Shown here: piece after piece, positions 1 through 38,413 of the stretch | Position numbering within the stretch: the first letter of the stretch is position 1 | How the letters are laid out: each line of letters begins with the position of its first letter | From: a virus | Taxonomy: Duplodnaviria > Heunggongvirae > Uroviricota > Caudoviricetes | Direction: 5' to 3' (one strand) | Length of the DNA stretch: 40,135 bases | IMG/VR virus record: IMGVR_UViG_2547132278_000018 | Notes under the pieces: model-generated | Seen by the model: the letters and a program-made list of their open reading frames with translations, nothing else | What the model was told of the DNA's origin: nothing | Database searches by the model: none | Position numbers and translations under genes: made by a program

Positions 1-353
<353 letters not shown>

Positions 354-442: not shown

Positions 443-1765
443 TTATCTGCCGCCAAACTTAACCTGAACAACATTATCCGTCACCTCATGGCTGGCAGAC
501 TGCGCTACATACCGCTCCACAAAATCCCCCCAGCTCAAAAACAAACTACGCAATTTTTCCGCCTGCTGCCCGACCTGATAGGTTCTGATCAGGCGGTCTT
601 TAGGAATGTGGTTTAACAATCGCTCAATCAGGCGCTCCGGGGCATCCAGATATTCAGCGCAACCAGTAGCGACACTGCGGCGTAAATCATGGGGAGAAAA
701 TGGCTCCAGCTCTGCCAGATATTTTTTACGCAGGCGCTCCAGTGCTCGTGTGACAGCGTCTCCGGTTATAGGGAATCCCTGGTTGCTGGTGGACTCAAAG
801 ACAAATGCGCCTTCGGAGATAATTCGCTGTTTCTTCAGGATAGACAGTGCCAGCGGATGCAGTGTTACTACATGACTTTTACCATTCTTTGTTTCCGGTA
901 TTGTCCAGCGATCGCCGTTGATTTGATCCCAGCGCATTTTAACCGCTTCAGAGCGGCGAACGCCGGTCAGAATAATCAGCTTCAGTGTGTTAGCTATCGC
1001 ATGGGATAAAACGACACTGGAAGCGATACCTTTTCCACCGGTGCTAACTGAACCGCCACCAGCAGTAGCTTCTTCTAGTGTTTTCCAGAGCCGTTGAAGC
1101 TCATCCTGCGATAACCAGCGCTCACGCGGTTTAGCCATGGAAGCACCAAACATCGCCGGTTTTAACAGACGGGCAGGGTTGAGCTCGATTAATCCCTGAA
1201 GTGTGGCATGGTCAAGTGTCATATTCAGGATGATAAGCCCTTTGCGCACACCTTCAGCGCTGGATTGTCGGACTTTGCTCAGGTGTGCAAACAAATATGA
1301 ACGCGATAAATCGCACACTCTCACGGAGCCTAGCCCCTGCTCAAGATGGCGACGATACGTTCCCTTATAATCAGCCAGTGTACGAGCCCCTATTGGCTTG
1401 CTGGTTTCTCTGAATGACAACCAGTTTTCCCACAATTCAGAAAATATGGGCATCTGCTCATTATTCGATTTTTCAGTTTTACGAACGTATCTGGGGTCAA
1501 TTCCCTGCTTCACTAACTCAATGGCTTCAGCATGTGCTTCACGAGCCTGGGCCAGCGTCATTGCAGGATAAGCTCCCAGGGTAATTTTTATCTGCTTGCC
1601 GTTGAGGTAGGGACGGTAGAGCCAACTCTTTGTTTGGCTCCCTGATCGGGATTCGATATACAACCCCGCACCTGCTTTTGATTTGACGCTGACGACAATC
1701 CGGTTTTTTCCTACAGGGGGAACAAGGCTTGCTATCTGTCGATCCTGAGTTATCACTGTTGCCAT
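443..1765 (-). CDS. Tyrosine recombinase/integrase, P4/CP4-type with N-terminal arm-binding domain
   Basis: 440-aa ORF; C-terminal catalytic region with HDLRRS and conserved R/H/Y context; family assignment from recall. Confidence 0.8.
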   Translation of the reverse strand: MATVITQDRQIASLVPPVGKNRIVVSVKSKAGAGLYIESRSGSQTKSWLYRPYLNGKQIKITLGAYPAMTLAQAREAHAEAIELVKQGIDPRYVRKTEKSNNEQMPIFSELWENWLSFRETSKPIGARTLADYKGTYRRHLEQGLGSVRVCDLSRSYLFAHLSKVRQSSAEGVRKGLIILNMTLDHATLQGLIELNPARLLKPAMFGASMAKPRERWLSQDELQRLWKTLEEATAGGGSVSTGGKGIASSVVLSHAIANTLKLIILTGVRRSEAVKMRWDQINGDRWTIPETKNGKSHVVTLHPLALSILKKQRIISEGAFVFESTSNQGFPITGDAVTRALERLRKKYLAELEPFSPHDLRRSVATGCAEYLDAPERLIERLLNHIPKDRLIRTYQVGQQAEKLRSLFLSWGDFVERYVAQSASHEVTDNVVQVKFGGR

Positions 1766-1929: not shown

Positions 1930-1975
1930 ATTCGTAATGCGAAGGTCGTAGGTTCGACTCCTATTATCGGCACCA
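1930..1975 (+). other. tRNA-Thr (thrW) 3' fragment, 46 nt, ending CCA - phage att core, not an intact tRNA
   Basis: ATTCGTAATGCGAAGGTCGTAGGTTCGACTCCTATTATCGGCACCA matches the anticodon-loop-to-CCA portion of E. coli thrW from memory; upstream 30 nt do not match the tRNA 5' half. Confidence 0.8.
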
Positions 1976-1989
1976 TTTAAATCAATAAG

Positions 1990-3153
1990 TTACACATCAT
2001 TAGTACCTTCCTTATTTTTTGACTGGGACAAATTTGGGACCGATGGGTTCAGGATCGAGTCTATTTGCCGTGCGTGTTCGGTAAGGTGATTAGGTGCAAG
2101 GTGAGCATATCGACGAACCATTTCGATAGACTCCCAACCTCCCATTTCCTGTAACACTGACAACGGGACTCCGGCTTGAACCAGCCAACTTGCCCAGGTG
2201 TGTCTCAAGTCGTGAAATCTGAAATCATCAATATCAGCCCGTCTCAGCGCCGCTTTCCAGGCTGTGTTTGCGTCATACCGCATCTTCCTTACTGTTGGCG
2301 CTTTCGTTCCGTCTGGTTTGGTACAGCTTTCCTTGTACACAAATACCCAACGGTGATGATTCCCGATTTGTTTTTTCAATACGCGACATGCAGTATCATT
2401 CAGCGCAACGCCAATTGCGCGGTTTGATTTACTCTCTTCCGGGTTTATCCATGCCACCCGGCGCTGCATATCTATTTGTTGCCATTCAAGGTTGATGATG
2501 TTCGAGCGTCTTAAGCCTGTTGCCAGTGCAAATTCAACAACAGACTTTAATGGCTCCGGACATTCATCAATCAGCCTTTGTGCTTCATGGGGCTCCAGCC
2601 AGCGGATCCGTTTATTCTTTGGTTGAGGCACTTTAATAATTGGTGCCTTATCCAGCATTTTCCATTCACGCTCTGCGGCTCTTAGTAGGGCCTTTATAAA
2701 TGAAAGATGCGTAGCCTTCGTTGCAACGGACGCTGGTTTTGGCGTGTATTCTGGAACAGGTTTCCCTTTTTTTCTGCATGCTTCTGCCCTGAGTTTCCAG
2801 TTTTCCTCATGACGCCGGTTTGTCATTTTCTGCATTGCTGAATAAATTTTTGATTCAGTAATGTCTCTTAGTTGCATTCCTGCGAAATGTTGAAGCCAGA
2901 ATCCGATCCGGCTTTTGTCATCGTCCAGTGATTTTTTATGTGCTTTCTCTTCAAGCCACCTGACACACGCTTCCTCGAACGTTATATCAGGTATTTCACC
3001 AAGTTTGCTGACCCGCCATGCTTCAGCCTTTAGCTTGTCATGGAGTTCTGTCGCCTGCCTTTTGTCCTTTGTTCCAAGAGACTGTTTAAATCTTTTACCG
3101 TTCGGCAATGTGAAACTGGCGTACCATATTTCACCTCTGCGGAAGAGTGACAT
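1990..3153 (-). CDS. int: P22-type phage integrase
   Basis: 387 aa starting [31 protein letters not shown]...; closely resembles phage P22 Int as recalled; C-terminus abuts the thrW core. Confidence 0.93.
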
Positions 3154-5526: not shown

Positions 5527-5591
5527 AATAAGTCCTCACTATATAAAGATATTCAGTGATGAGATAAATAATCAGTTAATTAAAAACGATA

Positions 5592-5954
5592 TTAACGACC
5601 TGCTGCGCGGAGTTTTCCGTCAGGTTTACCGGCAAGAGTCAGTAACTGTCCCTGGTCTTCCTGCAGAATAGTCAGGCGACCACCGCGATTGACATACATC
5701 GGCGTTTCGGTGGTGTCTTCTTCGGAAATTTTCCCGCGGTTAGTCGGGCGAACATATGAGAGTTTGTGTTTGATTTTCACACGGTTCTCATCAAATGGTT
5801 CGATTTCCAGGTTGAGTGAGACCTTACCTTTGGTTTTCGTGTTCATCACACCGGAAGCGACTTCACTGAGAACTGCGCCGATTTTGGTTTCAAATACGCC
5901 GCCGTCCAGCTCCCCGATAAATGCCTGCACATCAGTACTGCGTTCGCTAGCCAT
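5592..5954 (-). CDS. YfdP-like prophage protein
   Basis: Start taken at MASERSTDV (GAGGAG RBS 9 nt upstream); the longer track ORF (to 6272) has an Arg-rich non-protein-like extension. Confidence 0.6.
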   Translation of the reverse strand: MASERSTDVQAFIGELDGGVFETKIGAVLSEVASGVMNTKTKGKVSLNLEIEPFDENRVKIKHKLSYVRPTNRGKISEEDTTETPMYVNRGGRLTILQEDQGQLLTLAGKPDGKLRAAGR

Positions 5955-6002
5955 TTTGCTGCTCCTCATCATATCGACCCTGCAAGGACGATTAGTTTCT
6001 CC

Positions 6003-6091
6003 ACAAAACAGAGAAGAACACCTGCGGTGGCAGCCGCCCGGATGGATTGGGTTATGAGCCCGTCGTCCGGTGATGCTCTTCTCTGTTTTGT
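6003..6091. repeat. Perfect 15-bp inverted repeat (ACAAAACAGAGAAGA / TCTTCTCTGTTTTGT) enclosing 59 bp, in the leader of the early-left operon
   Basis: Read directly: arm 1 at 6003-6017, arm 2 at 6077-6091, exact reverse complements. Confidence 0.7.
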
Positions 6092-6392
6092 AAAAAGGAC
6101 GGTACCAGCCGGAAGCAAGGGTACAAACTGGTACCGCCAAGACTACATACAGCATAAAGTTGTGGTGCCGGGTGCCTCCCGGTGCCTGGCGAAGGTTGCA
6201 CACCAGACGGGTGGGTATCCACAGAAGGTCGACTGTCAGCCTCAACCTTAACCCGCGTGCGCTGAGCCGCATTCACCACAACGCTAAGGATTCTCTTTGG
6301 TTGAAAATACTTAGCTGTTATGTGCCTGTCTTTTCACCACTTCAGGCTCGGTGGTATCTTGGTGTTTTCATATAGCCAAGAAGGAAATAGTT

Positions 6393-6584
6393 ATGACCAA
6401 AGAAGAAAAAATTCTTTATTTATTCCAACTATCGGTTAAGACTCACACTGCATATCAGACTGCTGCCATGACATCAGATAAAAATTACAGTACGTCAGAA
6501 AACCCGATAGACGACATAAGCAAGCTTTACGATAAGTTCGAAGCACTACTCGATAAAAAGTTTGCTGAGGCTGGGCTTGAGTGA
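6393..6584 (+). CDS. Small hypothetical protein (63 aa), AT-rich
   Basis: ATG preceded by AAGGA at about 9 nt; MTKEEKILYLFQLSVKTHTAYQ...; converges on and overlaps the 3' end of the 6546-6722 ORF. Confidence 0.35.
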   Translation: MTKEEKILYLFQLSVKTHTAYQTAAMTSDKNYSTSENPIDDISKLYDKFEALLDKKFAEAGLE

Positions 6585-6722
6585 TTGTTGAATAATCGAC
6601 AAAACCCAACTTAAATTTTCGTCAGTGGGCTCGATGCCATGTGCGGTGAGCTCACTTTTCAAAACTCCAAGTAATTCAGAGCTGATTTTCAATATATCTG
6701 CTTGATTTCTAACTATTCCCAC
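6546..6722 (-). CDS. Small hypothetical protein (58 aa from GTG; 68 aa if ATG at 6752), first gene downstream of putative pL
   Basis: GGGAGG then GTG 6 nt downstream; the longer form has an Arg-rich N-terminus (MTARRPREEK). Confidence 0.35.
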   Translation of the reverse strand: MGIVRNQADILKISSELLGVLKSELTAHGIEPTDENLSWVLSIIQQSLKPSLSKLFIE

Positions 6723-6924
6723 TTTTTCCTCCCTTGGTCTACGCGCGGTCATGTTTTACGCCCAAACGACTTCACAGTTATTGTTTAAAATCTGGACTTT
6801 CATTTCATACACCTGCTTTAACATGAGTGCCTGGTGGCACAACATGACTCAACGAATCATCCTGGACTTCATATGCCCCAGGCGGCTACTTCGTGGGCGT
6901 CCTGCCTGTTCGTTATCTTTGATA

Positions 6925-6960
6925 TAAAATCTAACTTAACTTAGTTATTATGGCAAGAGA
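6925..6960 (-). promoter_or_regulatory. Putative pL promoter with overlapping operator (OL)
   Basis: Minus strand: TTGCCA, 17-nt spacer, TAGATT; operator-like CTAACTTAACTTAG (6931-6944) and further CTTAG half-sites at 6971-6997. Confidence 0.4.
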
Positions 6961-7009
6961 AAACACCAAACTTTTCTTAGTTCGGTGCCTTAGTTAGAGA
7001 AGAGAGGTC

Positions 7010-7636
7010 TTAGAGTTCGTATTGAACTCCTTTGACTACACCAATGATAAGGCAATTACCATTGATAGGGATGTTGGGATACCGAGGATTTAATGGCACT
7101 AAAAACTTTTGAGGGCCATCGATGACTAATTTTTTTACTGTAGCTTCGTTTGTTCCATCAAGTCGAGCGATGACTATTTTTCCATGACGAGGTTCTGCAT
7201 CTGGATCTACAATCACTGTTGCGCCTTCTGGTATTGTTGGGAGGCCATTAGGGTTAGTCATGGAGTCACCTTTAACCTCTAATGCAAATGAGTTATCACC
7301 AATCTTTAATGATGTATCTACCCACTTGTCCACTTCACTAAACACTTCTGCTGCCCTGCACTCAGTAAACTGCCCAGCCTGAACCCACGATATTACAGGA
7401 ACTCTGCGCATGTTTGTGACGAGTTTGCCTTCAAACTCAGCACCATAAAGAATGTAATCTATTGACGTATTGAAGAACTTCGCTAATTTCGAAAGCGCCT
7501 CCCCACCAGGGGTATTGATGTCTTTCTCCCAGTACCCCACAGCAACGTCGCTTACTCCACAAAATTTACCCAATTCTTTCTGGGACGTTCCGGTAACTCT
7601 TCTCAGAGCTTTTATACGCTGACCAACCGTTTCCAT
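7010..7636 (-). CDS. CI-type phage repressor (HTH plus S24 LexA-like peptidase domain)
   Basis: 208 aa; N-terminal HTH (QKELGKFCGVSDVAVGYWE), C-terminal autocleavage-type domain (GDSM...K); divergent from the cro-like gene. Confidence 0.9.
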   Translation of the reverse strand: METVGQRIKALRRVTGTSQKELGKFCGVSDVAVGYWEKDINTPGGEALSKLAKFFNTSIDYILYGAEFEGKLVTNMRRVPVISWVQAGQFTECRAAEVFSEVDKWVDTSLKIGDNSFALEVKGDSMTNPNGLPTIPEGATVIVDPDAEPRHGKIVIARLDGTNEATVKKLVIDGPQKFLVPLNPRYPNIPINGNCLIIGVVKGVQYEL

Positions 7637-29481: not shown

Positions 29482-30816
29482 GTGTATATGACGTGGAAAG
29501 ACAGGCTTCAGGATGCGTCATTTCGAGGTGTGCCGTTTAAGGTTGAAGAAGAAAGTGCGGGAACCGGCCGTCGTGTGGAAACACACGAATATCCGAACCG
29601 CGACAAACCCTATACCGAAGATCTGGGAAAAGTCACTTTCCGCCCGTCCATCACGGCTTATGTGGTGGGAGATGACTGCTTTGACCAGCGCGATCGCCTG
29701 ATTGAAGCGCTGAATAAACCCGGTCCCGGCACGCTTGTCCACCCGACATATGGTGAGCTGAAAGTCTGTGTTGACGGGGAAGTTCGGGTCAGCACATCGA
29801 AAAGTGAAGGGCGTATTGTCCGCTTTGACCTGAAGTTTGTCGAAGCAGGAGAACTCTCTTACCCCACATCAGGTGCGGCGACGGCGCAGACGCTGATGTC
29901 ATCCTGTTCTGCACTGGATGACTGCATCAGTGACAGCTTCAGCGGTTTCAGTATCGATGGTGTGGCGGATTTCGTGCAGAACGACGTTATCGGTAATGCC
30001 AGCATAATGCTGGGGTATGTTTCTGATGCCATGAAAGTGGTGGATTCTGCCGTATCGGATGCCGCCAGGCTGTTGCAGGGGGATATCTCGGTACTTCTGC
30101 CGCCGCCATCGTCAGGCAAAAATTTCGTTGAGCAGGTGCAGAAAATGTGGCGTACCGGGAAACGCCTTTATGGTAACGCCAGCGACCTGGTCACCATGAT
30201 CAAAACGCTTTCCGGTGTCAGCCTCGGCAGCGATCTGCAACCGCGCGGCGTCTGGAAAACGGACAGTAAAACCACCGCCACGGCGACGCAGCAGCGTAAC
30301 GTGGTTGCCAGCACCCTTCGTACGACCGCAATCAGCGAAGCGGCGTATGCCGTCACCCGATTGCCTGCGCCAACAACTTCCGCGGTGATGCAGAATTCCG
30401 CAGTGGGGCAGGCAACAACAACCGCGCAGAGCACTGGCTGGCCTTCCGTCACGCATCCGGCACTAAACAATGCATCGGCGGTGAAAAACACGGTTGACCT
30501 GCCGACGTGGGAAGAACTGACTGACATTCGCGACACACTGAATACGGCAATTGATAAGGAGTTGTCCCGTACAACCAGTGATGCGCTGTTTCTGGCGCTG
30601 CGCCGGGTGAAAGCAGATCTGAATGCGGATATCAACACGCGCCTTGAACAGTCTGCACGGATCATTCAGCGCACACCGGATGAGGTTTTACCCGCGCTGG
30701 TGCTGGCGGCTACCTGGTTTGATAACGCGGCGCGTGACGCGGACATTATCCGGCGTAATGCCATTACGCATCCCGGCTTTGTGCCGGTGATCCCTCTGAA
30801 GGTGCCAGTGCAATGA
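29482..30816 (+). CDS. DNA circularisation protein (Mu gpN-like)
   Basis: 444 aa, MTWKDRLQDASFRGVPFKVEEES... N-terminus. Confidence 0.8.
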   Translation: MYMTWKDRLQDASFRGVPFKVEEESAGTGRRVETHEYPNRDKPYTEDLGKVTFRPSITAYVVGDDCFDQRDRLIEALNKPGPGTLVHPTYGELKVCVDGEVRVSTSKSEGRIVRFDLKFVEAGELSYPTSGAATAQTLMSSCSALDDCISDSFSGFSIDGVADFVQNDVIGNASIMLGYVSDAMKVVDSAVSDAARLLQGDISVLLPPPSSGKNFVEQVQKMWRTGKRLYGNASDLVTMIKTLSGVSLGSDLQPRGVWKTDSKTTATATQQRNVVASTLRTTAISEAAYAVTRLPAPTTSAVMQNSAVGQATTTAQSTGWPSVTHPALNNASAVKNTVDLPTWEELTDIRDTLNTAIDKELSRTTSDALFLALRRVKADLNADINTRLEQSARIIQRTPDEVLPALVLAATWFDNAARDADIIRRNAITHPGFVPVIPLKVPVQ

Positions 30817-31892
30817 ACGACAATGTCACGCTACGGGTAAATGGCCGGGAGTGGAATGGCTGGACATCGGTGCGCATCGGTGCCGGTATTGAACGGCTGG
30901 CGCGGGATTTCAGTGTGGAGATCACTCGCCAGTGGCCGGGAGATGAGGGTATCACCACGCTTCAGCCGCGCATTAAAAACGGTTCAAAAGTGAAAGTGCT
31001 GATTGGTGATGAGCTGGTGATCACCGGCTGGGTGGAGGCGACTCCCGTTCGTTACGATGCCCGTTCGGTCAGCACCGGTATTGCCGGACGTAGTCTGACG
31101 GCTGACCTGATTGACTGTGCAGCCGAACCGACACAGTTTAACGGACGCTCGCTGGTGCAGATTGCGCAGGCGCTTGCTGCGCCTTTCGGCATTGAGGTGG
31201 TGAACAGCGGTGCGCCGTCGGGTGTTATTCCTGATGTTCAGCCTGATCACGGCGAAACGGTGATCGAGGTGATCAACAAAATACTCGGTCAGCAGCAGGC
31301 ACTGGCTTACGACGACCCGCATGGCAGGCTGGTGATTGGCGGTATTGGCTCAACGCGGGCACATACCGCGCTGGTACTTGGGGAAAACATCCTTTCCTGT
31401 GATACGGAGAAGAGTATCCGGGAGCGGTTTTCAGTTTACCAGGTGGCGGGGCAGCGTGCCGGAAATGACGATGATTTCGGTGAGGCCACCACCACCGCGC
31501 TGCGGGCCCGCACAGAAGACGCATTTATTGCCCGTTACCGTCCGATGTATATCAGGCAGACAGGGCAGGCTACGGGGGCAGGCTGTATTGCCCGTGCGGA
31601 CTTTGAAGCCCGGCAACGGGCGGCGCGGACGGATGAAACCACCTATGTGGTGCAGGGCTGGCGACAGGGTAACGGTACGCTGTGGCAACCCAACCAGCGG
31701 GTGATTGTCTTCGATCCGGTCTGTGGTTTCGACAATACCGAACTGCTTGTCTCGGAAGTCACGTTTACTCAGGACCAGAACGGCACCCTGACGGAAATCC
31801 GTGTCGGCCCACCTGATGCTTATCTGCCTGAACCCGAAGCCCCCGGCGCGCGGAAAAAGAAAAAAGCCAGAGTACAGGAGGACCCGTTCTGA
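30813..31892 (+). CDS. Baseplate hub protein (Mu gpP-like)
   Basis: 359 aa, position. Confidence 0.75.
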   Translation: MNDNVTLRVNGREWNGWTSVRIGAGIERLARDFSVEITRQWPGDEGITTLQPRIKNGSKVKVLIGDELVITGWVEATPVRYDARSVSTGIAGRSLTADLIDCAAEPTQFNGRSLVQIAQALAAPFGIEVVNSGAPSGVIPDVQPDHGETVIEVINKILGQQQALAYDDPHGRLVIGGIGSTRAHTALVLGENILSCDTEKSIRERFSVYQVAGQRAGNDDDFGEATTTALRARTEDAFIARYRPMYIRQTGQATGAGCIARADFEARQRAARTDETTYVVQGWRQGNGTLWQPNQRVIVFDPVCGFDNTELLVSEVTFTQDQNGTLTEIRVGPPDAYLPEPEAPGARKKKKARVQEDPF

Positions 31893-32440
31893 TGAGGACG
31901 ATTGAAGCCATGCAGCGACAACTCCTCGGCCTGATTGGGCGGGCAGTGGTGAAAAGCATCAGTGCCGCCACGAAATGTCAGACCGTGGATGTGTCCCTGA
32001 TTGCCGGTGAACCCAAAGCCGGGGTTGAACATCTTGAACCCTACGGTTTTACCGCAAGGGCAAACAGCGGTGCGGAAGCGGTGGTGTTGTTTCCGGATGG
32101 CGACCGTTCTCATGCGGTGGTTGTTACGGTGTCGGACCGGCGCTACCGCCTGAAAGGGCTGCAGACGGGTGAGGTGGCGGTCTATGACGATCAGGGGCAG
32201 TCCGTGACGCTGACCCGGGAGGGGATCGTGGTGGACGGTGCAGGTAAAACGATCACGTTTCGCAATTCACCTAAAGCACGTTTTGAAATGGACCTGGAAG
32301 TGACAGGACAGGTGAAAGACCTGTGCGACTCCAGCGGCACCACCATGTCAGCGATGCGGCTTGCCTATAACGGGCATCGTCACAGAGAGAACGGTCAGGG
32401 CAGTAACACCGACAAACCTGATAAAGCGATGGAGGCATGA
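31892..32440 (+). CDS. Baseplate spike/assembly protein V
   Basis: 182 aa. Confidence 0.75.
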   Translation: MRTIEAMQRQLLGLIGRAVVKSISAATKCQTVDVSLIAGEPKAGVEHLEPYGFTARANSGAEAVVLFPDGDRSHAVVVTVSDRRYRLKGLQTGEVAVYDDQGQSVTLTREGIVVDGAGKTITFRNSPKARFEMDLEVTGQVKDLCDSSGTTMSAMRLAYNGHRHRENGQGSNTDKPDKAMEA

Positions 32441-32862
32441 TGGAACTGTGGCTGACGGTGAACGGTAAACGCACCTGCGCCAGCGCACCGCTGGATCCGC
32501 TGACCCGCGCCGTGGTGATTTCCCTGTTTACCTGGCGGCGGGCGGAGCCTGATGACAATGCCGACGTCCCGATGGGATGGTGGGGGGATACCTGGCCTAC
32601 GGTACAGAATGACCGTTACGGCTCCCGACTGTGGCTGCTTCAGCGCAGCAAACTGACCAATCAACTGGTGCAGACGGTAAGGGGGTATATCCGCGAATGC
32701 CTGCAATGGATGATTGATGACGGCGTGGTGTCCCGCATTGATCTGGATATCCGCCGCACTGGGATTAATGAACTGGGTAACAGTATCACTCTCTGGCGTC
32801 GTGACGGACCGGTAATGATTTCTTTTGATGATCTGTGGAGTGCGATAACGCATGGCGGATAG
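32437..32862 (+). CDS. Baseplate protein (Mu gp46 family)
   Basis: 141 aa. Confidence 0.7.
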   Translation: MMELWLTVNGKRTCASAPLDPLTRAVVISLFTWRRAEPDDNADVPMGWWGDTWPTVQNDRYGSRLWLLQRSKLTNQLVQTVRGYIRECLQWMIDDGVVSRIDLDIRRTGINELGNSITLWRRDGPVMISFDDLWSAITHGG

Positions 32863-33910
32863 TGAATTTCAGCGCCCGACGCTGGCAGAAAATATCAGTA
32901 TGCTCCGTAACGATTTATTCGCCAGGCTGGACGTCAGCGACACGCTCCGGCGCATGGATGAAGACGTGCGGGCAAAGGTGTATGCGGCGGCGCTGCATAC
33001 GGTTTATGGTTACATCGATTATCTGGCAATGAACATGCTGCCTGACCTGTGCGATGAGTCCTGGCTGGCGCGACATGCTGCGATGAAACGGTGTCCGCGC
33101 AAGGGAGCCACGGTTGCCAGCGGGTATATGCGCTGGGAAGGTGTCAGCGATGGCCTGAAGGTGACCGCCGGGAGTGTTATTCAGCGCGATGACCTGGTTC
33201 AGTACACGGCAACTGCCGATGCAACCAGCGCCGGTGGTGTCCTGCGCGTGCCGATCGCCTGCTCAACTGCAGGCGCGGTCGGTAACGCTGACGACGGTAC
33301 GGCATTAATCCTGGTCACGCCGGTGAATGGTCTGCCGTCTTCCGGTGTGGCAGATACCCTGACTGGCGGATTCGATACTGAAGATCTGGAAACGTGGCGC
33401 GCCCGCGTCATTGAGCGGTATTACTGGACGCCGCAGGGCGGGGCTGACGGGGACTATGTTGTCTGGGCTAAAGAAGTGCCCGGCATTACCCGCGCATGGA
33501 CATACCGACACTGGATGGGAACGGGGACTGTCGGTGTGATGATTGCCAGCAGTGACCTGATTAATCCCATTCCGGAAGAATCAACGGAAACGGCGGCAAG
33601 ACAACATATCGAGCCACTGGCCCCGGTGGCAGGCTCTGATTTGTATGTATTCAGGCCGGTGGCACATACGGTGGATTTTCATATCCGCGTGACGCCGGAC
33701 ACACCAGAAATACGGGCTGCCATTACCGCGGAGTTGCATTCGTTCCTGCTGCGTGATGGTTATCCGCAGGGAGAACTGAAGGTATCGCGTATCAGTGAGG
33801 CGATTTCCGGTGCGAACGGGGAATACAGCCATCAGTTGCTTGCACCGGCAGACAATATCTCCATTGCAAAAAATGAACTGGCGGTACTGGGGACGATTTC
33901 ATGGACGTGA
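32852..33910 (+). CDS. Baseplate J-like protein (Mu gp47 family)
   Basis: 352 aa. Confidence 0.8.
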
Positions 33911-34485
33911 CAAACGATGATTACATCCGTCTGTTGTCGGCACTGTTGCCCCCCGGTCCGGCGTGGTCAGCCAGCGATCCGGCGATTGCCGGTGCGGCAC
34001 CGTCATTAACCCGCGTTCATCAGCTTGCGGATGCCCTGATGCGGGAGCTGGATCCGCGCACCACCACTGAACTGATAAACCGCTGGGAGCGTCTGTGCGG
34101 TCTGCCGGATGAATGTATTCCCGCAGGGACACAGACCCTTCGCCAGCGTCAGCAACGGCTGGATGCGAAGGTTAACCTGGCGGGCGGCATCAACGAGGAT
34201 TTTTATCTTGCACAGCTTGCTGCCCTGGGCAGACCAGATGCCACCATCGCGCGATACGACAAAAGCACGTTCACCTGCTCATCGGCCTGTACTGACGCTG
34301 TGAACGCGCCTGAATGGCGGTATTACTGGCAGGTCAACATGCCAGCCGCCACCAACACCACCTGGATGACATGTGGCGATCCCTGTGATTCCGCACTGCG
34401 TATCTGGGGCGACACAGTTGTCGAATGTGTGCTTAACAAACTCTGCCCGTCGCATACCTACGTAATTTTTAAATATCCGGAGTAA
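33901..34485 (+). CDS. Tail protein (Mu gp48 / YmfQ-like)
   Basis: 194 aa; recalled as the e14 YmfQ family. Confidence 0.7.
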
Positions 34486-34488
34486 TCC

Positions 34489-35244
34489 ATGCATCGTATA
34501 GACACGAAAACCGCGCAGAAGGATAAGTTCGGCGCGGGTAAGAACGGTTTTACCCGTGGTAACCCCCAGACCGGCACGCCTGCCACCGATCTGGATGATG
34601 ACTACTTTGACATGTTGCAGGAGGAGCTTTGCAGCGTTGTGGAGGCGTCCGGTGCCAGCCTGGAGAAGGGGCGGCACGACCAGCTACTTACCGCGCTTCG
34701 CGCGCTGCTGTTAAGCCGCAAGAATCCGTTTGGCGATATCAAATCGGATGGCACGGTGAAAACGGCTCTCGAAAACCTTGGTTTGGGAGAAGGCTCTGCA
34801 TTACCTGTTGGTGTCCCTGTTCCGTGGCCTTCAGCCACTCCGCCAACAGGCTGGCTGAAATGCAATGGTGCCGCTTTTTCTGCTGAAGAATACCCGGAAC
34901 TGGCAAAGGCTTATCCGACAAATAAATTGCCTGATTTACGTGGTGAGTTTATTCGCGGCTGGGATGACGGGCGCGGGGTTGACTCTGGACGAGGTTTGTT
35001 GACGGCGCAGGCGGAAACAAAGATAACTAACCACCACGGCAATGGCGGTAACGCTGATGATATTTCGGCTGGTGTCTCCGGTTCACCTCCCAAAAACTTT
35101 GTCAGAAACGCGGATTCGGCAGTTAATGCTGGTTCTGGTTTTACCGCTTTTGGCTCTGGAAATTTGACAATGAATGGTGTTACTTCTTATTTCGGTGTCC
35201 GTCCACGCAACATCGCATTTAACTACATTGTGAGGGCTGCATAA
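34489..35244 (+). CDS. Tail fibre protein (constant N-terminus plus currently expressed variable C-terminus)
   Basis: 251 aa; recombination site inside the gene at 34767-34792. Confidence 0.85.
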
Positions 35245-35846
35245 TGGATAGCGCTGTATTAAATAGCGAGTTTATTGCCACGAAGGCGGGGGATATTACT
35301 GTCTATAATTATGATGGTGAAACACGGGAATATATTTCCATATCAACTGAATATCTTGCCGTTGGTGTCGGCATTCCGGCATGTTCCTGTTTAGATGCTC
35401 CAGGCGCATACAAAGCTGGTTATGCAATCTGCCGTTCTGCAGATTTTAAGTCATGGGAATATGTGCCAGACCATCGCGGTGAAATCGTCTTTAGCACCGA
35501 AACAGGAGAATCAAAAGAAATCACAGCTCCGGGTGATTACCCTAATAATACAACCACTATCGCCCCATTAACGCCATACGATAAATGGGATGGTGAGAAA
35601 TGGGTGACGGATACTGAGGCACAGCATAGCGCCGCAGTAGACGCGGCAGAAGCACAGCGCCAGTCACTGATTGATGCTGCAATGGCTTCCATTAGTCTGA
35701 TTCAGCTGAAATTACAGGCCGGACGGAAACTGACGCAGGCAGAAACAACCCGGCTTAACGCTGTGCTGGATTACATTGACGCGGTGACGGCAACAGATAC
35801 CAGCACCGCGCCGAATGTCATCTGGCCTGAACTGCCGGAGGCGTAG
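35244..35846 (+). CDS. Tail fibre assembly protein (Tfa)
   Basis: 200 aa; C-terminal NVIWPELPEA-type ending. Confidence 0.85.
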   Translation: MDSAVLNSEFIATKAGDITVYNYDGETREYISISTEYLAVGVGIPACSCLDAPGAYKAGYAICRSADFKSWEYVPDHRGEIVFSTETGESKEITAPGDYPNNTTTIAPLTPYDKWDGEKWVTDTEAQHSAAVDAAEAQRQSLIDAAMASISLIQLKLQAGRKLTQAETTRLNAVLDYIDAVTATDTSTAPNVIWPELPEA

Positions 35847-36261
35847 GCCATTCAATATCTGGAGCACTGGAGGGATCAACCAGTTCCAGTGCGTCCAGAT
35901 AATCCAGCCATAAATTATATTGCTCCAGCTCGTTACCTTTCAGACGACCAATAGCAGCTTTGCCAGGCCACTGATGGGTGTTGATGTAGGTATTGGCTTC
36001 TGAAACCAAAGATATTTTTTTCATTTCAGCCATCAACACCTCATCCTCTTTTGAAGGCGGTGGGGAATTAATCCATATTGGCCGTCCTGAACTGTCAGCG
36101 CCAATTTCTTTCCCTTCTGGATGCAGCCCAAGAAATTGCTCATATGTTTCTCGGGTAATTTCAATAACATCATCTGGAAGCGTTCCCGCATCCTCATATT
36201 CTGGAAACAATTCTTGTAGATAAAAACTTTTACTTCCGGGTGAAAAGAATACTGAGTTCAT
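35818..36261 (-). CDS. Alternative tail fibre assembly protein (Tfa'), inverted orientation
   Basis: 147 aa; 3' ends of the two tfa genes overlap convergently. Confidence 0.8.
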   Translation of the reverse strand: MNSVFFSPGSKSFYLQELFPEYEDAGTLPDDVIEITRETYEQFLGLHPEGKEIGADSSGRPIWINSPPPSKEDEVLMAEMKKISLVSEANTYINTHQWPGKAAIGRLKGNELEQYNLWLDYLDALELVDPSSAPDIEWPTPPAVQAR

Positions 36262-36263
36262 TC

Positions 36264-36713
36264 TTACCGTCCAATGATTAACGCTGAGACGCTGGTATCT
36301 GAAGGAAAGGCTGCATTCAGTGGTTTGTCGACTTTGAATACAATCGTATTATTCCCCCGGACAGCGGCAAAAGAACAAACCGCCGTCGCGTATGAACCTG
36401 TAATATTACTGGATACACCGCCATAAGCTGTTGTTGATACCAGAGGGATAACGCCCAGCACCTTATTAGGAAATACAAAGGGCAATGTGGCTGTGGCAAT
36501 ATAAGACTTATTAGAACCTGTAATGGCATAAGCATTATCAGTCATTCCATTCATCGCCACTGGACCGCTTATACTTACAGTAACCATCTGAGTGATTAGC
36601 CCGTCAGGTTGACGAATCACAAAATTTCCATTGCCACCAGTAACCGTCCAGAAAGACATATCAGGGATTTGGTTTTCCCCGTTGCCCACATTCCGTTTTG
36701 CCGCTTCTCCCAA
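36264..36713 (-). CDS. Alternative tail-fibre C-terminal cassette (promoterless, in frame with right inversion site)
   Basis: Reading frame runs into the right hix-like site (..LGEAAKRNVGNGEN..); no independent RBS. Confidence 0.7.
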   Translation of the reverse strand: MGEAAKRNVGNGENQIPDMSFWTVTGGNGNFVIRQPDGLITQMVTVSISGPVAMNGMTDNAYAITGSNKSYIATATLPFVFPNKVLGVIPLVSTTAYGGVSSNITGSYATAVCSFAAVRGNNTIVFKVDKPLNAAFPSDTSVSALIIGR

Positions 36714-36784
36714 ACCAACCTTTTAGAAAATGCAGTTATTCGGCTCAGATGGCATGATCCCGGATTTTTACAGGGTTATTTCTC

Positions 36785-37339
36785 ATGCTTATTGGCTATG
36801 TACGTGTGTCAACAAATTACCAGAACACAGATCTACAACGTAATGCGCTGAACTGTGCAGGATGTGAGCTGATTTTTGAAGACAAGATAAGCGGTACAAA
36901 GTCCGACAGACCAGGACTGAAAAAGCTGCTCAGGACATTATCGGCAGGTGACACGCTGGTGGTCTGGAAACTGGACCGACTGGGGCGCAGTATGCGGCAT
37001 CTTGTCGTGCTGGTGGAGGAGTTGCGCGAACGAGGCATCAACTTTCGTAGTCTGACGGATTCAATTGATACCAGTACCCCAATGGGGCGCTTTTTCTTTC
37101 ATGTGATGGGTGCCCTGGCTGAAATGGAGCGTGAACTGATTGTTGAACGAACAAAAGCTGGACTGGAAGCAGCTCGCGCACAGGGACGAATTGGTGGACG
37201 TCGCCCCAAACTTACACCAGAACAATGGGAGCAGGCCGGACGATTAATTGCATCAGGCGTTCCTCGCCAGAAGGTGGCGATCATCTATGATGTTGGTATA
37301 TCGACACTGTATAAGAAGTTTCCGGTCGGAGATAAATGA
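36785..37339 (+). CDS. Serine DNA invertase (Pin/Gin/Hin family)
   Basis: 184 aa; MLIGYVRVSTNYQNTDLQ catalytic Ser region and C-terminal HTH. Confidence 0.93.
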   Translation: MLIGYVRVSTNYQNTDLQRNALNCAGCELIFEDKISGTKSDRPGLKKLLRTLSAGDTLVVWKLDRLGRSMRHLVVLVEELRERGINFRSLTDSIDTSTPMGRFFFHVMGALAEMERELIVERTKAGLEAARAQGRIGGRRPKLTPEQWEQAGRLIASGVPRQKVAIIYDVGISTLYKKFPVGDK

Positions 37340-37340
37340 A

Positions 37341-37382
37341 ACCGTAGCACGTCGTATGCAAGAAGATCGTGCTGCGGTTTAT
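37341..37382. terminator. Putative bidirectional terminator between convergent invertase and GIY-YIG genes
   Basis: Imperfect 11-bp inverted repeat ACCGTAGCACG / CGTGCTGCGGT; weak U-tracts. Confidence 0.35.
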
Positions 37383-37399
37383 GCTTATCACTTAAAGAC

Positions 37400-38269
<870 letters not shown>

Positions 38270-38352
38270 CTAACCCTTTGAATTTACATAGCGCAAAAAG
38301 ATACCTTTCCTCATAATGTGAGCTAATTTTATGTTTCGTTTGATGATCGGGT

Positions 38353-38413
38353 CGGTCTCGAAAACCGGAGTAGGGGCAACTCTACCGGGGGTTCAAATCC
38401 CCCTCTCTCCGCC
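38353..38413 (+). other. tRNA-Ser (serU-type) 3' fragment, about 61 nt, ending CCA - att-core-like repeat, not an intact tRNA
   Basis: GGTCTCGAAAACCGGAGTAGGGGCAACTCTACCGGGGGTTCAAATCCCCCTCTCTCCGCCA matches the serU 3' portion from memory; upstream does not match the tRNA 5' half. Confidence 0.8.

Follow-up and report, generated by a model that had tools for sequence, protein, structure and literature searches.

Gene order and crossover sites

In the window, which here denotes the whole stretch of 40,135 nucleotides of viral DNA under analysis, two tail-fibre cassettes and a serine DNA invertase gene are arranged around a pair of inverted repeats (Table 1), and the ORF list agrees with the initial annotation on the positions of the reading frames. 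The fibre now expressed joins a short constant N-terminus, 97% identical to K-12 StfP over fibre residues 1–105, to a first cassette that is homologous to the silent stfE' of K-12 (56% amino acid identity; 97.6% DNA identity over 34773–34982, on the opposite strand). The two cassettes are convergent, and each consists of a fibre C-terminus and its own Caudo_TAP tail-fibre assembly gene, with the 3' end of tfa2 overlapping tfa1 by 29 bp; the tfa1 product is 91% identical to K-12 TfaE and the tfa2 product 56% identical to K-12 TfaP. The fibre part of the second cassette gave a weak Gp53-like_C match (E = 3e-4, under the Pfam cut-off) and no BLASTP match to the C-terminus of K-12 StfP. Its one start codon is a TTG within the repeat, and an in-frame TAA stands four codons upstream of the repeat, so that the silent cassette is without an evident start.

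Table 1. Features of the fibre locus, in coordinates of the window
Feature	Position	Strand	Description	Basis
Fibre ORF, present orientation	34489-35244	+	251-aa product	
Constant fibre N-terminus	34489..34777	+	~97 aa; ends ...ENLGLGE across site	ORF list
Left crossover site	34766-34791		26 bp; CTCTCGAAAACC-TT-GGTTTGGGAGAA	core TT at 34778-34779
Invertible segment	34779..36717		1,939 bp, core to core	in-silico flip; contig L007 is the exact flip, 0 extra mismatches
Cassette 1, fibre C-terminus now expressed	34780..35244	+	phage tail collar domain	PF07484 Collar, E = 1.7e-15
tfa1, cassette 1 tail-fibre assembly gene	35244..35846	+	200 aa	PF02413 Caudo_TAP, E = 2.2e-32
tfa2, cassette 2 tail-fibre assembly gene	35818..36261	-	147 aa	PF02413, E = 3.6e-27
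Cassette 2, silent alternative fibre C-terminus	36264..36716 (ORF 36264-36713)	-	149 codons	
Right crossover site	36705-36730		26 bp; TTCTCCCAAACC-AA-CCTTTTAGAAAA	core AA at 36717-36718
pin, serine DNA invertase gene	36785..37339	+	184 aa; outside the segment	68 bp between right-site centre and ATG
Candidate recombinational enhancer	36806..36869		two G-N13-C Fis-like cores, 36806-36820 and 36855-36869	inferred from motif positions
G->T substitution (GAC->TAC), Pin D12Y	36818	+	falls on +5 of the first candidate Fis core	

The repeats themselves are far beyond chance. A repeat finder returns 24-nt arms at 34769–34792 and 36704–36727 that are 88% complementary, and the window has exactly two copies of the 14-mer TTCTCCCAAACCAA, one on each strand, where 0.04 copies are expected; none of 100 shuffles produced a pair of matches. 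The inverted repeats that had been proposed at 34767–34792 and 36704–36728 thus resolve into two 26-bp sites in inverted orientation, which have imperfect dyad half-sites and the same 2-bp core. The left site is identical, with no differences, to the left site of the K-12 element e14 and to the repeat published for it (PMC12529663), and the right site is likewise identical to that of the JE86 pair, which inverts in nature. The e14 crossover core TTGGTTTGGGAGAAG is present in the window sites, which moreover have the half-site pattern TTnTCnnAAACC in common with Mu gix (sequence taken from the Mu genome, NC_000929); judged by sequence, they are of the hix/gix type.

As had been predicted, the GLGE motif is encoded at both repeats (...LGLGE... 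is read across the repeat in both frames), and inversion in silico between the two cores yields an uninterrupted 247-aa fibre followed directly by tfa2. Both the in-frame fusion of the constant N-terminus to the alternative cassette and the movement of the alternative tfa gene into register therefore hold.

Both orientations in related prophages

Among complete genomes that match at a coverage of at least 80%, 53 have the native arrangement and 20 the flipped one. In two pairs of relatives, Cn5/IrN and JE86-ST02/ST05, an exact inversion is the sole difference, with zero other mismatches over 7.3–7.4 kb and with breakpoints that fall inside the 16-bp core. The same holds for the allele of the window itself: the 24 contigs read, out of 121 that encode the exact invertase protein with tyrosine at residue 12 (Y12), include 12 in flipped and five in native orientation; with the window's own allele, L007 is identical to the window as flipped in silico, and L009 is the native form. 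A further contig, L011, starts at 36720, right at the core. Exact inversions of this kind, seen independently in several lineages between sequences with no other difference, refute the idea that the inverted repeat is a chance occurrence, or a historical relic of cassette exchange without any inversion, and that idea deserves practically no credence.

The prophage that carries the segment is not e14 but an apparently intact SfV-like E. coli prophage of ~36 kb with an HK97-type head and a Mu-type contractile tail, which adjoins a partial copy of thrW and lies downstream of a Zorya/type I restriction-modification island. A near-identical prophage in NZ_LR883006.1 has the full phage gene set, with structural and tail genes annotated as intact, and isolated phages have the same backbone together with the invertase. 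Within the stretch compared, NZ_LR883006.1 matches the window only at 1930–38201, and it was accordingly rejected as the source of the whole window. At the right end of the prophage, a search for a thrW-derived attR repeat returned no repeat of at least 12 nt, which leaves the ability of the prophage to excise uncertain; Rfam matches to a tRNA-like stretch near 38.35 kb were all below threshold.

Taken together, the locus is very probably a Gin/Pin-type fibre inversion switch, homologous to the e14 P segment, in an apparently intact SfV-like prophage. In the proposed mechanism, Pin would be made from the gene just outside the segment, bind both 26-bp sites and exchange strands at the central AA/TT dinucleotide, and, to judge from Gin and Hin, inversion would probably depend on Fis bound to an enhancer at the 5' end of the pin gene. 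Behind the same constant N-terminus of 97 aa, each flip would replace the collar-domain cassette and its 200-aa chaperone by the second cassette with its chaperone of 147 aa. Since the fibre C-terminus is what inversion replaces, a lysogen population would release virions of two receptor specificities, the two fibres presumably differing in host range.

The invertase and its D12Y substitution

The gene that follows the segment, expected to encode a serine invertase of the Pin type, does so: its product has a Resolvase domain (PF00239, E = 1e-50) and an HTH_7 domain (PF02796, E = 3.9e-13), is a close relative of Gin that matches the Gin structure 3UJ3 with E = 1.8e-94, and has 95.1% identity to K-12 PinE; in RefSeq the gene already bears the name pinE. 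The gene is intact, and the active-site residues known from gamma-delta resolvase are kept (Y5, R7, S9, Q13, Q18, the D of EDK and the DRLGR motif); the conserved active-site residues of resolvases include Y6, R8, S10, Q14, Q19, D36, R68 and R71 in Tn3 numbering (PMC2794168). In the interval from the right site to pin, a scan for promoter-like sites returned four matches against 4.3 expected, none above chance.

The 5' end of pin contains a candidate recombinational enhancer with two putative Fis sites, as suggested by its sequence. The candidate cores lie at nt 22–36 and 71–85 of the gene, 49 bp apart; the first 130 nt of pin are identical to gin at 101 positions, and the first 180 nt are those of the naturally flipping JE86 allele with the single difference G34T. 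For comparison, the hin enhancer lies ~100 bp from its hix site and has AT-rich ATTTA/TAATG between the Fis sites (PMC3798978). As the exact sequences of the hin and gin Fis sites were not found in the open-text literature, the enhancer assignment is made at the level of motifs.

Pin D12Y is a rare, non-conservative change three residues from the catalytic Ser9; its 61-mer occurs in one of 1,099 complete genomes, and of 24 related invertases, 23 have Asp at residue 12. By alignment it does not fall on a catalytic residue, and the equivalent position 13 of Tn3 resolvase is Gln and stands outside the list of conserved residues (PMC2794168). Reduced or altered Pin activity is nonetheless possible, because the substitution is near Ser9, at a residue that is mostly Asp, and inside a candidate Fis site. 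These same features, the prevalence of Asp and the rarity of the Y12 allele, would fit a reading in which the switch of the family is genuine while this copy is locked, D12Y having killed either Pin or the enhancer, and in which another serine invertase of the same genomes catalyses in trans the flips and the deletion seen in Y12 carriers. Such catalysis has parallels, since PinQ inverts the e14 P segment in trans (PMC12529663) and P2-like prophages still flip the same segment with no adjoining invertase; flips in the Y12 lineage could, by analogy with PinQ on e14, have come about in this way. Against a locked copy stand the intact state of every aligned catalytic residue, the Gln at the Tn3 position and the absence of a second megablast-level pin copy from NZ_LR883006.1. 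Moreover, because contigs with Y12 Pin are found in both orientations, flipping has occurred at least once since D12Y arose, and at least one site-specific deletion has likewise taken place in the Y12 background. The outcome that would have spoken against a working switch, a single orientation together with an inactivated invertase, is not what is observed, with both orientations present and the one unusual substitution off the catalytic residues, and a locked copy is unlikely; the functional switch, with the Y12 Pin of this copy as its probable catalyst, is the preferred reading. Natural isolates here test the tolerance of a non-conservative substitution near the catalytic serine, and it is apparently tolerated.

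Some isolates have a ~45-kb deletion in which the right crossover site is fused to a quasi-site within hsdS of a type I system. A large inversion was considered for this hsdS–pin junction and rejected: at the left end of the window and in complete genomes, the island and the prophage form a tandem in which hsdS and pin share a strand, so that the event is a deletion. No hybrid hsdS–pin junction was found in the complete genomes searched, and the contexts of the exact Tfa2 protein, followed as a route to the reciprocal junction, were uninformative, because exact Tfa2 occurs too widely (3,344 blocks). The fusion would show an invertase at work in nature on a secondary site of the chromosome. Wild-type invertases rarely delete DNA between direct repeats of their sites. 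There is a slim chance that D12Y is not neutral but relaxes the site or topological selectivity of Pin, similarly to enhancer-independent mutants of Gin, Cin and Hin; if so, a relaxed Pin would explain a ~45-kb deletion between direct repeats of which one is a poor hsdS quasi-site, and a phage host-range invertase would reshape the chromosome of its host, removing its own prophage and disabling type I restriction.

Comparison with known inversion systems

The mechanism is ordinary, being the textbook biology of Mu G, P1 C and e14 P, and the present follow-up mainly confirms the accuracy of a call made earlier from the DNA alone. That call had cited all three segments as established switches of host range, which stands for Mu and P1; for e14 inversion alone has been shown, because e14 is defective.

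One of the closest relatives is the P segment of e14, which with its published inverted-repeat core has been inverted experimentally by PinE and by PinQ (PMC12529663). The gene order is the same (ymfQ, the stf constant region, a site, a cassette with tfa, an opposite-strand tfa with its cassette, a site and pin), as are the left site and the 15–16-bp core of the inverted repeat, published as TTGGTTTGGGAGAAGG (PMC12529663). The module in the window is nevertheless a homologue that sits in another prophage, and is not e14 itself: its element is a ~36-kb prophage at a thrW copy and is not located in icd, where e14 is a 15-kb remnant. Further differences are a segment of 1,939 bp against 1,797 bp in e14, a StfE/TfaE-type cassette that is expressed here and silent in the K-12 reference, a downstream GIY-YIG gene in place of mcrA, and Pin D12Y. 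In its outer half the right site reads CCTTTTAGAAAA, against CGTTTATGAAAA in e14, a difference that introduces the in-frame TAA. An e14-type module in an intact SfV-like prophage suggests what the ancestor of e14 looked like.

In e14, inversion driven by PinQ is reported to produce StfE2, a product that blocks adsorption of T2 (PMC12529663), and the window sites have the same core; the main role of the segment might hence lie in defence of the host and not in the host range of the phage, with inversion giving a chimeric fibre fragment that blocks the adsorption of phages such as T2. In K-12, however, a leader with an ATG precedes the repeat at the pin-proximal cassette, where the window has the TAA, and the window cassette differs from the C-terminus of K-12 StfP. 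A main role in defence is very unlikely; as the prophage seems to be complete and has intact tail genes, a role in the virion is the simpler reading.

The resemblance to the G segment of Mu extends to an invertase gene outside the segment (with the ATG of gin as far from the right-site centre as that of pin), 26-bp sites with common half-sites, a constant N-terminus before two convergent cassettes of fibre C-terminus and assembly gene, and Mu-type baseplate genes (gp46-48) upstream in the window. The core dinucleotide, in contrast, is AA in the window against GA in the Mu sites, the perfect repeat measures 15–16 bp against 34 bp, and a segment of 1.9 kb follows a constant fibre part of just ~97 aa, where the Mu segment has ~3 kb. 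The C segment of P1 with Cin is a system of the same kind as Mu G with Gin.

The serotype-converting Shigella flexneri phages SfI, SfII, SfIV and SfV have ~97% DNA identity to the baseplate genes and the constant fibre N-terminus at 30800–34792, and the window prophage resembles them also in its thrW-derived attachment copy. Their DNA similarity to the window ends at the left crossover site (34792), past which the C-terminus of their fibre is presumably fixed and genes for O-antigen modification occur; none of these phages is known to have an invertible segment there. From 34767 through the invertase, by contrast, ~87% DNA identity is found to P2-like prophages with an invertible fibre segment (such as the phage P2 record from E. 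coli O157:H43 T22), and some P2-like prophages have an identical Tfa2 and an identical right site, although their baseplate is of the P2 type and their fibre N-terminus is longer. In the P2-like L014 and L015, the segment is present without an adjoining invertase gene. The crossover site doubles as the boundary at which SfV-like and P2-like phages exchange fibre modules.

Crossover sites, cassettes and the fibre fusion

The initial annotation had placed an inverted repeat around the alternative fibre cassettes, and a repeat finder recovers it there as two arms of 24 nt that are 88% complementary (34769-34792 and 36704-36727). The 14-mer TTCTCCCAAACCAA is present in exactly two copies in the 40 kb, one per strand, where 0.04 would be expected, and two matches arose in 0 of 100 shuffles. 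Read in register, the arms extend to the two 26-bp sites listed in the table; the left site is identical to the left site of e14 in K-12, and the repeat core of 15–16 bp is that published for the 1,797-bp e14 P segment (PMC12529663). The flanking reading frames were likewise found as described, and the predicted in-frame fusion is borne out by an in-silico flip from core to core, which yields an uninterrupted fibre of 247 aa (...ENLGLGEAAKRNVG...) with the 147-aa assembly gene directly 3' of it.

Coordinates of the invertible segment, its recombinase gene and the left end of the window
Feature	Position	Strand	Basis or sequence
IS-like sequence	1-348		
Tyrosine integrase of island	443-1765	-	
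Partial thrW copy, 63 nt	1930-1992		
Fibre gene, 251 aa	34489-35244	+	ORF
Left site, 26 bp in register	34766-34791		CTCTCGAAAACC-TT-GGTTTGGGAGAA
Assembly gene Tfa1, 200 aa	35244-35846	+	ORF; Caudo_TAP (Pfam)
Assembly gene Tfa2, 147 aa	35818-36261	-	ORF; Caudo_TAP (Pfam)
Silent cassette, 149 codons	36264-36713	-	ORF
Right site, 26 bp in register	36705-36730		TTCTCCCAAACC-AA-CCTTTTAGAAAA
Recombinase gene pin, 184 aa	36785-37339	+	ORF; Resolvase + HTH_7 (Pfam)

In Pfam searches, the expressed fibre C-terminus matches the phage tail collar domain, the gene preceding the fibre resembles Mu gp48, and the silent cassette gives a weak, sub-threshold match to a gp53-like C-terminus. An in-frame TAA, formed by the outer half of the right site four codons before the repeat, leaves this cassette without an evident translation start (minus strand, 36714-36784); RefSeq labels it a hypothetical protein with a TTG start. 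A defence product resembling the StfE2 of PMC12529663 would therefore be unlikely to arise from it. For the recombinase, Gin (solved structure 3UJ3) is a match at E = 1.8e-94, and in an alignment to gamma-delta resolvase its catalytic Ser is in position, as are the remaining conserved residues of the active site (listed in PMC2794168).

In the mechanism proposed, Pin would be made in both orientations, because pin lies outside the segment; it would bind both sites and exchange strands at the AA/TT core, with Fis on a putative enhancer activating the tetramer by analogy with Hin and Gin. In the Hin/Gin model, the Fis-bound enhancer lies about 100 bp from one site (PMC3798978); for the window, we infer a candidate enhancer from homology and a motif only. 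Either orientation would then supply a complete fibre together with its cognate chaperone.

Both orientations and the D12Y allele of Pin

Using 33900-38300 as the query, either native or flipped in silico, and counting complete genomes at a coverage of at least 80%, the native arrangement was found in 53 complete genomes and the flipped one in 20, with O157:H7 strains numerous in both lists. Base-by-base comparison revealed 0 differences besides an exact inversion between Cn5 and IrN (over 7,395 bp) and between JE86-ST02 and JE86-ST05 (over 7,312 bp). In both pairs the breakpoints can be placed anywhere in the shared 16-bp core, central dinucleotide included; this is the signature of a site-specific and very recent inversion. 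Both orientations are seen among complete genomes and in otherwise identical pairs, contrary to the single orientation that the initial annotation had named as part of its refuting condition, and the reading of the region as an invertible tail-fibre switch is supported by the fusion, the invertase and the two orientations.

The Pin of the window differs from that of the JE86 pair solely by Asp12 to Tyr (GAC to TAC at 36818). This Y12 allele is real, since the exact protein is on record in 121 contigs; it occurs in 1 of the 1,099 complete genomes having that stretch of pin, and Asp occupies position 12 in 23 of 24 related invertases. Residue 12 lies three residues from the catalytic Ser9; its equivalent in Tn3 and gamma-delta is Gln13, which is absent from the conserved residues tested in PMC2794168, and the neighbouring Q14 equivalent is intact in the window's Pin. 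The G-to-T base is position +5 of the candidate Fis core, GTGTCAACAAAT[G>T]AC, whose boundary G and C are unaltered; otherwise, the 5' 180 nt of pin and the 80 nt upstream are the same as in the JE86 allele.

Among the 24 longest contigs encoding exactly the Y12 protein, the segment is flipped in 12 and native in 5, pin is joined to hsdS in 6, and one contig starts at 36720, right at the core. A contig equal to the in-silico flip of the window (L007) and one in the native form (L009) each differ from the window by one SNP, common to both, at 32586. The Y12 allele is rare and derived, yet found with both orientations; at least one inversion therefore postdates it, catalyzed either by Y12 Pin itself or by another invertase in trans.

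Prophage context and the hsdS junction

NZ_LR883006.1, from the E. coli ETEC isolate L5_E1779, matches the region at 100% identity, and its annotated order there is ymfQ, phage tail protein, tfaE, tail fibre assembly protein, hypothetical protein and pinE. The prophage gene set comprises an integrase, CI/Cro and lysis genes, a terminase, portal, HK97-type protease and capsid, and a sheath, tube, tape measure and Mu-type baseplate; the element thus looks complete, unlike e14. At its left end the window departs from the order of NZ_LR883006.1 and is without the proA-thrW found there; positions 349-1993 belong to a Zorya and type I R-M island, of which they form the right end, arranged in tandem with the prophage. 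There are complete genomes with this tandem, laid out as zorDCBA(-), hsdM(+), hsdS(+), DUF4268, hsdR, UvrD, int(-), thrW' and prophage. A tRNA-Thr called by ARAGORN at 1896-1975 was rejected as a full gene, being the partial thrW copy fused to unrelated sequence, and a search of the prophage right end for a thrW-derived repeat of at least 12 nt found none.

Downstream of pin, a gene for a LEM-3-like GIY-YIG domain (37400-38224, minus strand) occupies the position of mcrA in e14 and accompanies pin in many genomes, deletion derivatives included. Further on, a tRNA-like fragment (38333-38411) resembles the 3' part of tRNA-Ser and has sub-threshold matches only in Rfam (tRNA-Sec family, 27.5 bits vs a cut-off of 47).

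To the left of window position 36715, two of the contigs with pin joined to hsdS (L008 and L010) match the island at 100% identity up to mid-hsdS; to the right of the junction they match the window, again at 100%. The junction, AAAGATTTATCC-AA-CCTTTTAGAAAA (L008:4400-4470, mapping to 36715-36718), joins the right crossover site at its AA core to a quasi-site in hsdS, as in all six such Y12 contigs. In the intact hsdS site, AAAGATTTATCC-AA-CGTTAAAGACAA, the AA core is the same and one half-site is good (reverse complement TTGTCTTTAACG). Both sites have the same strand orientation, so the simplest explanation would be a deletion of about 45 kb, starting within hsdS, whose 3' part would be lost, and running through hsdR, the island integrase and the prophage as far as cassette 2, the silent alternative. 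Its right endpoint falls within the 5-bp overlap at the crossover core, a position that makes catalysis by the invertase more likely than random illegitimate recombination; none of the collection's complete genomes carries the junction.

Related segments and known systems

Two P2-like prophages from two genomes (L014 and L015), with flanks 100% identical, carry a two-cassette segment whose Tfa2 is identical to the window's, and what separates them is an exact inversion of 1,941 bp (5544-7484 in each) between sites of the same kind, the outer of which matches the right site of the window exactly. Between this segment and the sheath gene there is no invertase gene; an exact inversion without an adjacent invertase gene suggests that the segment is inverted in trans by an invertase encoded elsewhere. 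In another relative (L019:5400-9900), whose sequence includes a run of N, the stretch upstream of pin has duplicated cassettes, with six crossover-type sites, four tfa genes and several fragments of collar sequence, an arrangement that resembles a multiple-inversion array.

The e14 P segment of K-12, which has been inverted experimentally by PinE and, in trans, by PinQ (PMC12529663), has the same gene order as the window, with PinE 95.1% identical to Pin and TfaE 91% identical to Tfa1. The silent stfE'/tfaE cassette of e14 is the homologue of the window's expressed cassette, and the K-12 StfP C-terminus gave no match to the silent one of the window; in e14, moreover, an ATG leader reads into the pin-proximal cassette, whereas the window has the in-frame TAA instead. 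Mu gix, read from the Mu sequence as TTCCTGTAAACC-GA-GGTTTTGGATAA, has the half-site pattern TTnTCnnAAACC in common with the window's sites; the distance from right-site centre to invertase ATG is 68 bp in both, and gin and pin are identical at 101 of their first 130 nt.

The isolated phages SfI, SfII, SfIV and SfV are about 97% identical to the window over the baseplate and constant fibre region, until identity stops at 34792, within the left site; P2-like phages are about 87% identical over the segment and invertase from 34767 onward. The crossover site therefore doubles as a module boundary of the mosaic. The isolated phage vB_EcoM-689R6 has the tail region in common and an invertase 94% identical. 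The window holds a Pin switch of the well-known e14/Mu type in an apparently intact SfV-like prophage, for which only the D12Y allele and the apparent deletion at a quasi-site are unusual.
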